NCBI GenBank assembly: GCA_965224645.1
Contig: OZ245053.1
Span: 3,350,881 to 3,414,880 of the forward strand
Direction of reading: 5' to 3'
DNA from: Woeseiaceae bacterium
Lineage (GTDB): Bacteria; Pseudomonadota; Gammaproteobacteria; Steroidobacterales; Woeseiaceae
Length of the DNA stretch: 64,000 nt
Under the pieces are notes generated by a model that saw nothing but the letters and a program-made list of their open reading frames with translations, was not told the DNA's origin and did no database searches. Of this stretch, positions 47,299 through 49,613 are shown piece after piece. The position numbers and the translations under genes are program-made. Within the stretch, counting starts at the first letter, position 1. Every line of letters begins with the position of its first letter.

Positions 47299-48501
47299 AT
47301 GCCCCGATCGACGCTGATACGTAACCAGCCCCCCCATCTCGTCGCTGCCTTCATTGTCGCCGCCTGCGGTGGCGGTGGTGGTGGTGATGGAGGTGGCGGC
47401 GGCAACCCACCGCCCCCGTCAACGTTCAACCCGGTATTTTCGGAGATCCAGACAAACGTATTCACACCAACCTGCGCTGTTTCGGGTTGCCACCAGGGCG
47501 CCGGCGCCCCGCAGGGGTTGCGGCTCGACGAAGCCAACAGCTACGGGTTGCTCGTAGACCAACCAAGTTCGCAAGTGCCGTCGCTCGACAGAGTAGAACC
47601 GGGCGATCCGAACAACAGCTACCTGGTGCAAAAACTCGAGGGTACAGCGTCGGTTGGCCAGCGGATGCCACTAAACGCCAGCGCTCTGCCGCAGTCCACG
47701 ATCAATATTGTTCGTCAGTGGATTACGGACGGCGCGACTGACGATCGTGCGCCGTCACCCGACCCGATCCGGGTAACATCACTCGTGCCGGATCCGGACA
47801 GCGACCTGACTGCGGCACCGACCGAGATCGTCGCGTCGTTCGACCGCGAGCTGAACACCACCTCGGTCGACATCAATACATTCCTGCTCGAGGCGAGCGG
47901 TGGCGATGGCACGTTCGGCGACGGTAATGAAACGTCAATCGCGGCGACGTCCATCATGACGTCCGGTACGCCGCCGATGACTGCGACGTTTGACCTGTCG
48001 GGCGCCAGCCTTTCCGATGACACATATCGTGTTCGACTGCTCGGTGACGGCGGAACCGTTATCCAGGACATCGACGGTAACGCGCTGGATGGTGAGTTCA
48101 GTGGCACATTCCCGTCGGGCGACGGCGCGGCTGGTGGCGATTTCGAAGCGATGTTCACACTGACCACGGCCACCTCCGGTGCGACGCTGGACGAAATCCA
48201 GTCGGCTGTTTTCACGTCAACTTGTGCAGGATGTCACTCCGGCCCGACGAGCACTACGTTGCCCGCCGGAATGGACCTGTCCGACGCTGACGCAAGTTTC
48301 AACGCCTTGGTCGGCGTTGCCAGCGTTCAGGAGCCCGCGATAGTGCGCGTAGCGGCCAACGATCCGGACAACAGTTACCTGATCCAGAAACTCGAAGGTA
48401 CCGCGAGTACCGGACAGCGCATGCCAGTGGGCGGGCCGTTTCTCGATCAGGCCACGATGGATGATATTCGTCAGTGGATCAGCGATGGGGCGAACCGCTG
48501 A
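47299..48501 (+). CDS. Lipoprotein with two PSCyt1-like (planctomycete cytochrome c-like) modules flanking an Ig-like domain
   Basis: The lipobox is FIVAAC, followed by a Gly/Pro linker. Module 1 is VFTPTCAVSGCHQG...DPNNSYLVQKLEGTASVGQRMP...RQWITDGA. Module 2 is VFTSTCAGCHSG...DPDNSYLIQKLEGTASTGQRMP...RQWISDGA. The middle segment GNALDGEFSGTFPSGDGAAGGDF is typical of bacterial Ig-like domains. Confidence 0.75.
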   Translation: MPRSTLIRNQPPHLVAAFIVAACGGGGGGDGGGGGNPPPPSTFNPVFSEIQTNVFTPTCAVSGCHQGAGAPQGLRLDEANSYGLLVDQPSSQVPSLDRVEPGDPNNSYLVQKLEGTASVGQRMPLNASALPQSTINIVRQWITDGATDDRAPSPDPIRVTSLVPDPDSDLTAAPTEIVASFDRELNTTSVDINTFLLEASGGDGTFGDGNETSIAATSIMTSGTPPMTATFDLSGASLSDDTYRVRLLGDGGTVIQDIDGNALDGEFSGTFPSGDGAAGGDFEAMFTLTTATSGATLDEIQSAVFTSTCAGCHSGPTSTTLPAGMDLSDADASFNALVGVASVQEPAIVRVAANDPDNSYLIQKLEGTASTGQRMPVGGPFLDQATMDDIRQWISDGANR

Positions 48502-49613
48502 TGGCCCGGCGTAGCCGGGTGAGTACCGGGTTCGTCGCGGCGATGTTTGCCTGGGCGATGATTCTGCTGGTGCCAGGGAAGGCGTTTGCGGAACCCTATA
48601 TCGCTGTTGACAAGGGCATGCAGTGTTCAGCCTGCCACGTCCATCCTGGCGGTGGCGGCAAGCGCAATGTTTACGGAAACGTCTACAGCCAGTCGGAGTT
48701 CGCAGCGACTCGTGTTGGAAACGACGAAGCGGCCCTCTGGACCGGCGAGCTTGCCAAGTGGTTTGCGGTCGGCGGCAATGTGCGCGGCGGTTACGAGTAC
48801 GTTGATGTTCCCGGCCAGGACGCGAGTTCGGAGTTCGACATTTCCCGGGCGACGATCTTCCTCGAAGCCAGCATCATTCCGGGTCGCCTTACGATCTATG
48901 TCGACCAGCAAGTTGCACCGTCGGCGAGCATCAACCGGGAAGCCTATGTTCGTGTCAATTCCACATCCGGTAAATGGTGGCTGGCCGTGGGCCAATTCTT
49001 TCAGACGTATGGCCTGCGCCTGCAGGACGACACGGCTTTCGTGCGCCGCGCAACGGGCGTGACCTTCGACAACCCGGATCGCGGTGTGCAGGTTGGCTTC
49101 GAGTCCGGTGCGTGGTCGACGATGGCATCAATTACGAACGGCTCGGGTGGTGGCAGTGAAACTGATACCGGTAAGCAGTTCGCTGTTACTTCAAGCTACG
49201 TGCAGCCCGGATGGCGTGCGGGACTGAGTGCGAGCCTCAATGATGCTTTGGGAGGTGATAGGGAGATGGTCGGAGCGTTTGCCGGCATTCGTACCGGGCC
49301 GATTGCTTGGCTGGGTGAGATTGACCGCGTGTCGGACGACTTGTCCCCAGGTGTCACGCGTACGGCACTGGCCGGGTTGATCGAAGCCAACTGGAAGTTC
49401 AGGCGCGGCCATAACCTGAAGGTTTCGTATGACGTGCTTGACCCGGACGATGATGCGGGTGGCGATCGCGAGGTGCGATACAGCCTTGTCTGGGAGTACT
49501 CGCCGATCCAATTCTTGCAAGGTCGGATCGGTGCGAGGTTGTATGACGGCCCGGGTGAATCCGGATTTGCAAACCGCGAATCATTGTTTGCGGAACTGCA
49601 CGGTTTTTTCTGA
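48501..49613 (+). CDS. Outer-membrane beta-barrel protein with an N-terminal CxxCH heme-binding motif (fused cytochrome-porin candidate)
   Basis: Its ATG overlaps the upstream stop (TGATG). The signal peptide ends KAFA-EP. The mature N-terminus is [29 protein letters not shown]. The remaining about 320 aa show alternating beta-strand patterns and a C-terminal ELHGFF (terminal aromatic). Confidence 0.7.
   Translation: [370 protein letters not shown]

Follow-up and report, generated by a model that had tools for sequence, protein, structure and literature searches.

The gene at 48501-49613 of a 64,000-nucleotide stretch of DNA from a Woeseiaceae bacterium (contig OZ245053.1 of assembly GCA_965224645.1; the whole stretch is referred to here as the window) raises the question of how far the fused cytochrome-porin principle extends beyond Cyc2, the main marker gene by which environmental microbial iron oxidation is mapped and one that is recognized by motif. 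A preliminary description of this DNA had taken the product, an apparent outer-membrane barrel with one N-terminal CxxCH motif, for a Cyc2-like fused cytochrome-porin that might form a distinct and smaller family, paired with a heme lipoprotein and controlled by an extracytoplasmic function (ECF) sigma factor. By sequence comparison, the protein appears to belong to a large and ecologically well-placed family that is distinct from Cyc2 in its conserved residues and in its partner. The reading that we consider probable, with appreciable room left for others, is that of an outer-membrane monoheme cytochrome-porin that carries heme at Cys42 and Cys45 with His46 as ligand, exchanges electrons at the periplasmic face with its partner, a lipid-anchored cytochrome, and is induced through the ECF system, with oxidation of Fe(II) or another small reductant as the leading candidate for its reaction.

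A heme motif fused to a predicted 16-strand barrel

The gene, which lies on the forward strand as do all of the features described in this paragraph, encodes a precursor of 370 amino acids. Its ATG (48501-48503) overlaps by one base the TGA stop (48499-48501) of the gene upstream, giving TGATG. A typical Sec signal peptide (residues 1-30; 48501-48590) would be removed by signal peptidase I after AFA, at AFA|EPY, to leave a mature protein of 340 residues; the residues around this predicted cut, A|E-P-Y, are conserved at 91-100 % in 210 relatives with complete N-termini. The mature protein begins with a putative heme module that contains two short helices (residues 31-82; 48591-48746) and was delimited by conservation, by the structural model, and by alignment to the corresponding module of Cyc2. 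Within it, CSACH (residues 42-46; 48624-48638) is the sole CxxCH of the protein and the predicted site of covalent heme c attachment through Cys42 and Cys45, with His46 as the proximal ligand. The remainder (residues 83-370; 48747-49610) is assigned by the model and by Foldseek to a 16-strand β-barrel and ends in ...ELHGFF, of which HGFF is the C-terminal outer-membrane signature. The fourth residue from the C-terminus, His367 (49599-49601), is specific to the family and is a candidate for the second heme ligand. The signal peptide, the single motif, and the coupling through TGATG to an upstream lipoprotein gene with CxxCH-type motifs had all been described before, and each can be read directly in the sequence and its coordinates; the earlier figure of about 345 mature residues was right as to the small size and missed the exact length by an immaterial margin.

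The presence of CSACH in this reading frame goes beyond chance, because CxxCH is rare in the window (four occurrences across all open reading frames of at least 80 amino acids in six frames) and because it is invariant among the relatives. Its conservation had been set out beforehand as the check to be made on homologues. All 210 relatives with complete N-termini have the motif, even those at about 30 % identity, and always 11 residues past the predicted mature N-terminus; the relatives that lack it are either fragments or carry frameshifts. In most members the two cysteines of the motif are the only ones. Cys42, Cys45, and His46 are invariant both in 22 close and in 43 diverse relatives, and the alignment of the latter adds Pro32, Gly51, Gly53, and Arg55 to the invariant positions. 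Counted from the first cysteine (n = 210), the upstream signature consists of Ala at -12 (91 %), Glu at -11 (100 %), Pro at -10 (99 %), Tyr at -9 (92 %), [LIF] at -8, Ala at -7 (95 %), [VIL] at -6 with Val in 78 %, and Gly at -3 (96 %). After C-x-x-C-H come any residue, [HN], Pro, any residue, Gly at +9 (100 %), Gly, Gly at +11 (100 %), any residue, and Arg at +13 (100 %), so that the family consensus is AEPY[LIF]A[VI]..G..CxxCHx[HN]PxGGGxR. The histidine at position -4 from the C-terminus is found in 202 of the 210 relatives and is invariant in the diverse alignment.

Could the two cysteines serve as a disulfide or a metal-binding site and not as a heme site? An N-terminal CXXC is familiar from MtrB/PioB-type porins, and AlphaFold folds the module without any cofactor. 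The histidine directly after the second cysteine is nevertheless conserved in every complete relative examined, the module shares its ancestry with the one in Cyc2, where both heme staining and redox titration have been published (PMC8406198), and the predicted barrel has 16 strands as opposed to about 26 in barrels of the MtrB type (PMC10654088), all of which make a motif without heme extremely improbable.

Structure prediction bore out the barrel that had previously been called by eye from strand periodicity. An AlphaFold2 model built with the 43 diverse relatives has a mean predicted local distance difference test (pLDDT) score of 91.8 and a predicted template-modeling score (pTM) of 0.86, and places 16 β-strands in residues 88-369; the heme module (residues 31-82) is modeled at pLDDT 86-93 with its two short helices. 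In an earlier run with the 22 close relatives the barrel was formed and the heme module was disordered, at pLDDT 67.7. All Foldseek matches in the PDB are 16-strand general or specific porins, with TM-scores of 0.56-0.75 on target length, led by PorB (3wi5, E 4e-12), OprP (2o4v, 7e-12), a chitoporin, and OprO (4rjx and 4rjw, 5-7e-11); no Cyc2-type structure appears among the Foldseek results for the barrel model. OprP and OprO (PF07396) are thus among the best structural matches (4rjw at E 7e-11), and they differ from the present protein in having no heme module. If the alternation rule is applied to the last strand, His367 is expected on the lumen side of the barrel, at its periplasmic rim.

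A PDB search with the single protein returned nothing and one with a profile returned one porin at E 0.79. NCBIfam gave no match for the protein, and the sole match in Pfam is Porin_O_P (PF07396), marginal at 22.2 bits against a cut-off of 20.9 and short, covering 87 residues (145-231) on profile positions 68-161 of 370. Fused cytochrome-porins are a known kind of protein; this family is unnamed in Pfam and NCBIfam, and no description of it was found in the one limited collection of papers that was searched. The family is sizable. An exhaustive HMMER search of 1.84 billion representatives identified 1,142 clusters (50 % identity), with E ≤1e-10 for 541, and a word-indexed search with the barrel protein gave 1,761 relatives at 90 % clustering. 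Among 120 relatives listed, a source name is given for about one-fifth and is then always "hypothetical protein," a precomputed Porin_O_P match exists for 2, and Woeseiaceae is named as the organism for a few; the closest relatives are from Woeseiaceae. In GTDB species genomes at least 599 stretches were found, of which 560 were confirmed, in Woeseiaceae (including Woeseia), Steroidobacteraceae, Nevskiales, Lysobacterales, and unclassified Gammaproteobacteria. The Steroidobacteraceae hosts comprise the isolates Steroidobacter flavus, S. gossypii, and Peristeroidobacter soli, and also Povalibacter. Members have a median length of 369 residues and range from 345 to 583.

Relation to Cyc2

Cyc2 proteins, among them those of Acidithiobacillus ferrooxidans and Mariprofundus ferrooxydans (Cyc2PV-1), have been defined by Keffer et al. 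(2021) by a signal peptide, a single CXXCH, an upstream AXPXFAR[Q/K][T/Y] (screened as PXFAR[Q/K][T/Y]), a PXL four residues past CXXCH, similarity to known members (BLASTP at 1e-5 or the FeGenie cluster models), and a length of at least 365 residues, most having 400 or more (PMC8406198). The barrel is a 16-strand porin for which OprO and OprP are the reported templates (PMC8406198). Because no model in Pfam or NCBIfam recognizes motif-defined Cyc2 proteins, we gathered them by the defining motif, scanning metagenome contigs for FAR[QK][TY]-x3-CxxCH, which yielded at least 120 loci and 67 complete proteins of at least 365 residues. One member of this set (L101) is closely related to proteins of Gallionella, Sideroxydans, and Gallionellaceae, all of them canonical hosts of Cyc2. 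Canonical-motif Cyc2 proteins are in themselves abundant in the metagenome collection, and many of these at least 120 loci (L083-L202) have the consensus IPAFARKYGLPCSACHEAWPMLNNFGQTFKDNGYQL.

Profile comparison by hhalign linked the family to motif-defined Cyc2 with a probability of 98.8 % and an E value of 1.4e-16 over 311 columns. The link holds for each part separately: the heme module alone matched that of Cyc2 at 97.4 % (E 9e-12, 37 columns) and the barrel alone at 94.5 % (E 8e-8, 228 columns), whereas controls with swapped halves gave 0.1 % and those with the barrel of a TorF porin gave 1.2 % and 0.3 %. A hidden Markov model (HMM) that we built from the 67 complete Cyc2 sequences scored the window protein at 12.8 bits and its relatives at no more than 31.5 bits. 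As judged from these profiles, the similarity to Cyc2 is that of remote homology and is not family-level. Both groups have a signal peptide, a single CxxCH about 11 residues past the mature N-terminus, and no further domain; both follow the register A(-12)-x-P(-10)-x-[F/L](-8)-A(-7)-x-x-x-G(-3)-x-x-CxxCH, and both are assigned a 16-strand, OprO/OprP-like barrel, with homology in the heme module as in the barrel. The window protein accordingly shares with the published definition its signal peptide, its single CXXCH, and, in the model, the OprO/OprP-like fold of 16 strands.

It departs from that definition at both flanking motifs. In place of PXFAR[Q/K][T/Y] the window protein has AEPYIAVDK and the family A-E-P-Y-L-A-V-x-x. 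The Arg at -6, present in 100 % of the Cyc2 set, is absent from the family, which has Val (78 %), Ile, or Leu at this position and no [QK][TY] after it, and the Glu at -11, found in 100 % of the family, corresponds to a hydrophobic residue in Cyc2. Past CxxCH, where the Cyc2 set has PxL at +8 to +10, the family reads CH-x-[HN]-P-x-G-G-G-x-R, with GGGxR at +9 to +13. At the C-terminus the family has its His at -4, whereas Cyc2 proteins end in DFDF, DFAF, and similar sequences without His. The window protein (370 residues) and the family (median 369) are also shorter than the Cyc2 set, the median of which is 468 (395-542), and the canonical motif PxFAR[QK] occurs nowhere within the 64-kb window. 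The partners differ, an upstream lipoprotein with PSCyt1-like modules in the family and a downstream soluble Cyc1 in Cyc2, and so do regulation and hosts, the family having a predicted, dedicated ECF control and occurring mostly in Woeseiaceae and Steroidobacteraceae, unlike Cyc2.

On this sequence evidence the family is taken to be homologous to Cyc2 in both of its parts, with the same architecture. Homology in both, combined with the absence of two of the motifs that define Cyc2, calls for placing it beside Cyc2 as a sister family and outside Cyc2 itself. The original proposal of a Cyc2-like fused cytochrome-porin therefore stands on the hhalign result, the invariant CxxCH, and the 16-strand model, and its suspicion of a distinct, smaller family has been substantiated by the two missing motifs and by a length about 100 residues below that of Cyc2. 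On a closer relationship, the protein would simply be an orthologue of Cyc2 that oxidizes Fe(II) for respiration and supplies a lithotrophic electron chain, like its counterparts in Mariprofundus, Gallionellaceae, and Acidithiobacillus. The shared fused architecture, N-terminal register, and detectable homology are in keeping with this, as is the gene order of two distant relatives (L203 and the place P0206, 31-37 % identity), in which the barrel gene is immediately followed by that of a diheme c4-type cytochrome, just as c4 cytochromes follow Cyc2-type genes in the rus operon (PMC10654088). Woeseiaceae bins have moreover been reported to express "Cyc2-homologues" (PMC6850669), which may or may not be members of the present family. 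We regard orthology as unlikely, given the failed motif definition, the 12.8 bits against the Cyc2 HMM, and the shortfall in length. The PSCyt1-like lipoprotein in place of Cyc1, the predicted ECF regulation, and cultured hosts that are known as heterotrophs argue in the same direction.

The lipoprotein partner and the ECF module

The gene upstream (47299-48501, +) encodes a 400-residue c-type cytochrome that its lipobox, heme motifs, and Pfam Big_5 match mark as a predicted lipoprotein of the outer-membrane type. A lipobox (VAAC) and a run of glycines are followed by a first heme module (CAVSGCH ... GQRMP), a Big_5 Ig-like domain, and a second heme module (CAGCH ... GQRMP), one heme motif being CX4CH and the other CX2CH. 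The two modules are 50 % identical, with CAVSGCH aligned to CA--GCH, and each closes with ...DP.NSYL.QKLEG....GQRMP; methionine is the likely sixth ligand in these modules. Library matches were to Big_5 (5e-6), to PSCyt1 just below threshold (20.7 bits, cut-off 22), and partially to the SO2930 diheme family (31 versus 313 bits), and a PDB search with the lipoprotein sequence gave nothing significant. The resemblance to PSCyt1 (PF07635) and SO2930 lies in a short CxxCH module followed by ...DP.NSYL..K.EG....RMP...; the partner differs from them in scoring under the curated cut-offs, in its lipid anchor, in the frequent duplication of the module around Big_5, and in the frequent use of CX4CH.

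The pairing of barrel and heme lipoprotein, claimed at the outset from this one locus, recurs throughout the family: in 79 of a set of 82 loci (L001-L082) the partner gene immediately precedes the barrel gene, and the remaining loci are cut by contig ends. The heme motifs of the partner are kept throughout this set, with two in the Woeseiaceae type of about 400 residues and one in the Steroidobacteraceae type of about 300. A one-module partner also stands directly upstream in four (L207, L208, L209, and L210) of five more distant relatives (29-45 % identity) with a readable upstream gene. CX4CH (CATSGCH, CAVSGCH) and CX2CH interchange at homologous sites of the partner, as seen in the window (47419-47740 and 48160-48498) and across L001-L082, and this provides a natural series for how the maturation system handles the longer spacing. 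Two loci, L205 (7585-8004) and L206 (2419-2838), encode a heme-free lipoprotein with three HxH motifs (GNHGHT, ANHPHA, SHEHA), which in the relative at 42 % identity suggest a metal-binding partner; MsrP/MsrQ-like genes adjoin this locus on the other strand.

An outer-membrane barrel and c-type cytochromes, including a lipoprotein, that are encoded by adjacent genes and follow a cross-membrane electron logic also describe MtrCAB, MtoAB/PioAB, and the Geobacter Pcc systems. In those porin-cytochrome complexes the barrel is not known to carry heme and sheathes a separate multiheme protein, whereas here a barrel of 16 predicted strands has its own single heme site and the partner has one or two hemes. 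The cluster contains no gene for a multiheme cytochrome, and the barrel protein, with 16 predicted strands and its own CxxCH, does not belong with MtrB, PioB, and MtoB.

Divergently from the pair lie three overlapping genes on the minus strand that form an operon (44813-47230). The first encodes an ECF sigma factor (46640-47230; Pfam Sigma70_r2 4e-15, Sigma70_r4_2 2e-9, and Sigma70_ECF), the true start of which is probably one of the internal ATGs; the second encodes an anti-sigma factor that combines a zf-HC2 domain with a single transmembrane segment and a domain in the periplasm (46021-46659; zf-HC2 6e-9, NCBIfam anti-sigma 4e-13); and the third encodes an exported subtilisin-like S8 serine protease (44813-46024; Peptidase_S8 2e-22), which may release the sigma factor or process cytochromes. 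The divergent intergenic region between the sigma factor (-) and lipoprotein (+) genes measures 70-100 bp and holds, back to back, the only two perfect TGAACCTTT sites in the window. One of them (47237-47245, +) is a candidate ECF-type -35 element of the lipoprotein-barrel operon, with a -10-like element, CGACTTAC, about 17 nt on, and the other (47221-47229, -) is a candidate ECF-type -35 element of the sigma/anti-sigma/S8 operon, which would provide for autoregulation. Sites with one mismatch occur elsewhere in the window at a frequency no higher than chance. The motif is shared among relatives: of 35 loci with the divergent arrangement, 32 have TGAACC ahead of the lipoprotein gene and 29 have the reverse-complement k-mer AAGGTTC in the intergenic region, and in divergent-layout loci a C-A-C-N-T/A-A-C element lies about 17 nt downstream of TGAACC. 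The motif pair has the classic ECF -35/-10 layout and indicates an autoregulated sigma operon with the lipoprotein-barrel operon as its target, both of which would presumably depend on this particular sigma factor. The suggestion of ECF control made in the preliminary description is in this way strengthened by a conserved, putative ECF-type promoter ahead of the pair.

Of the 82 loci, 54 have an ECF sigma factor gene within 8 kb of the barrel gene; the corresponding counts are 44 for the S8 protease, 43 for the anti-sigma factor, and 42 for a TorF/Gcw_chp porin, and the arrangement of the ECF, S8, and TorF neighbors varies among them. The sigma, anti-sigma, and S8 genes are linked also in L205 and L208 (42-45 % identity). 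In the window the TorF/Gcw_chp-family gene, which encodes a small porin, is found at 44043-44816 (+; Pfam Gcw_chp 2e-26, TIGR02001 3e-32), and in a relative at 36 % identity (L204, 1783-2547) such a porin gene is directly downstream of the barrel gene.

Frequent linkage to an ECF sigma/anti-sigma pair, as in cell-surface signaling, together with the general-porin fold, the weak Porin_O_P match, and the second small porin TorF, could also point to a solute porin or outer-membrane sensor in which the heme is a plug, a gate, or a redox sensor that reports to the anti-sigma factor and is no relay. Judging from the promoter motif, however, the pair acts below the sigma factor and not above it, and in about 28 of the 82 loci no ECF gene is found within 8 kb. 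Electron transfer is favored by the cytochrome partner, which is nearly universal, and by the c4 and molybdopterin-complex neighbors, and we consider a porin or sensor role very unlikely.

Proposed electron transfer and the wider neighborhood

In the mechanism that we favor, the precursor would be exported via Sec and cut after AFA, and the periplasmic cytochrome c maturation system would link heme to Cys42 and Cys45, His46 serving as the axial ligand. The β-barrel assembly machinery (BAM) would insert the barrel such that the heme module of about 50 residues lies at the periplasmic entrance of the pore or inside it, where the lumen-side His367 of the last strand would perhaps provide the second ligand. 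A small dissolved reductant, above all Fe(II), would enter the pore and be oxidized, and the co-translated lipoprotein cytochrome, anchored in the outer membrane and equipped with one or two PSCyt1-like modules, would relay electrons between the pore heme and periplasmic carriers. Both genes would be transcribed from the ECF-type promoter served by the divergent sigma/anti-sigma/S8 operon. Fe(II)-type oxidation is the most likely reaction because of the homology with Cyc2. In one relative (L210, 37 % identity; positions 2-8319) the row of the barrel gene includes an Fer4-NrfD-molybdopterin oxidoreductase complex, a possible link to the quinone pool; the same row holds a class I cytochrome c, a one-module lipoprotein cytochrome, and two exported proteins of no known kind.

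Several observations weigh against this mechanism. Stress-type ECF control would suit a role that is conditional or protective more than one at the core of energy metabolism, and the cultured hosts are known as heterotrophs and are not known iron oxidizers. The heme environment, potential, and substrate may differ from those of Cyc2, because the family lacks FAR[QK][TY] and PxL and has its own invariants in Glu -11, GGGxR, and the C-terminal His. Transfer of function from Cyc2 calls for caution on account of these family-specific invariants, the heterotrophic hosts, and the stress-type regulation. No Ccm or System II genes for cytochrome c maturation are present among the scanned open reading frames of the window, and in the fifth of the more distant relatives (L205, 42 %) the lipoprotein coupled upstream is heme-free. 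The placement of the heme module and the part assigned to His367 are conjectural, and for every member of the family we infer heme attachment, topology of the heme module, docking of the partner, direction of electron flow, and substrate alike.

These points leave room for a protein that works in the outward direction. The pore heme could be of low potential, possibly with two histidine ligands, and under ECF-sensed stress could export electrons or detoxify an oxidant or reductant at the cell surface. There is no conserved Met in the family, and apart from His46 just one His or Met is invariant, namely His367, located where the last strand ends on the periplasmic side; a sigma/anti-sigma/protease module with a conserved promoter is dedicated to the pair, and MsrPQ-like genes adjoin one relative. 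The ligand assignment is itself conjecture, however, the cluster has no known extracellular reductase partner, and Cyc2, the characterized homologue, runs inward, for which reasons an outward or detoxifying conduit seems improbable to us. We speculate, as a bolder and decidedly tentative extension, that the family is a second ancient lineage of fused cytochrome-porins, in which a His46/His367 pair held by the GGGxR loop and an obligate lipoprotein pair would constitute a stress-inducible electron valve of the outer membrane, operated through the ECF/protease circuit and not serving iron respiration. Such a valve, if real, would be present in hundreds of heterotrophic species, including the cosmopolitan Woeseiaceae of sediments, and invisible to iron-gene annotation.

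Whichever direction the electrons take, a family without the Cyc2 motif would be excluded by the published Cyc2 screen. Its hosts, the Woeseiaceae of marine sediments and the Steroidobacteraceae of soils, are abundant, and should the family prove to conduct electrons through the outer membrane, a common player is being overlooked when extracellular electron transfer and iron cycling are surveyed. The lipoprotein pairing and dedicated ECF circuit make for a compact and genetically tractable system, with cultured hosts in Steroidobacter flavus, S. gossypii, and Peristeroidobacter soli, and the barrel-lipoprotein system could show how a single-heme porin passes electrons on.

An antisense open reading frame of 259 residues at 49196-49975 was considered as a gene and rejected: it is "conserved" in 81 of the 82 loci only as the mirror of the barrel gene, outside of which lie just its first 120 or so codons. 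The stretch at 49613-49975 (-) resembles the C-terminal end of a DUF2797-type protein (...GILAGIKGQYLIFDDNRVPNIRKHNGYHVGL), which we take to be probably a gene remnant; its frame continues antisense into the barrel gene and so gives rise to the spurious reading frame. Farther downstream, a row of genes on the plus strand (50106-55655) encodes a DUF6502 protein, a lipoprotein with five DUF5666 repeats, a PgaA-like protein with tetratricopeptide repeats plus a barrel, and a family 2 glycosyltransferase (GT2) synthase resembling those for cellulose or poly-N-acetylglucosamine, and may constitute a putative module for exopolysaccharide synthesis and export; parts of it are also found near the barrel gene in L003, L007, and L024. 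The cytochrome cluster lies between a group of mobile-element genes and a second, possibly mobile region. The group at about 24300-39000 contains IS3-type and IS30-type transposases, a Mu-like transposase with an IstB ATPase, an rve_3 transposase, and a phage-type integrase, and the other has an open reading frame at 55808-56662 that appears integrase-like by eye.

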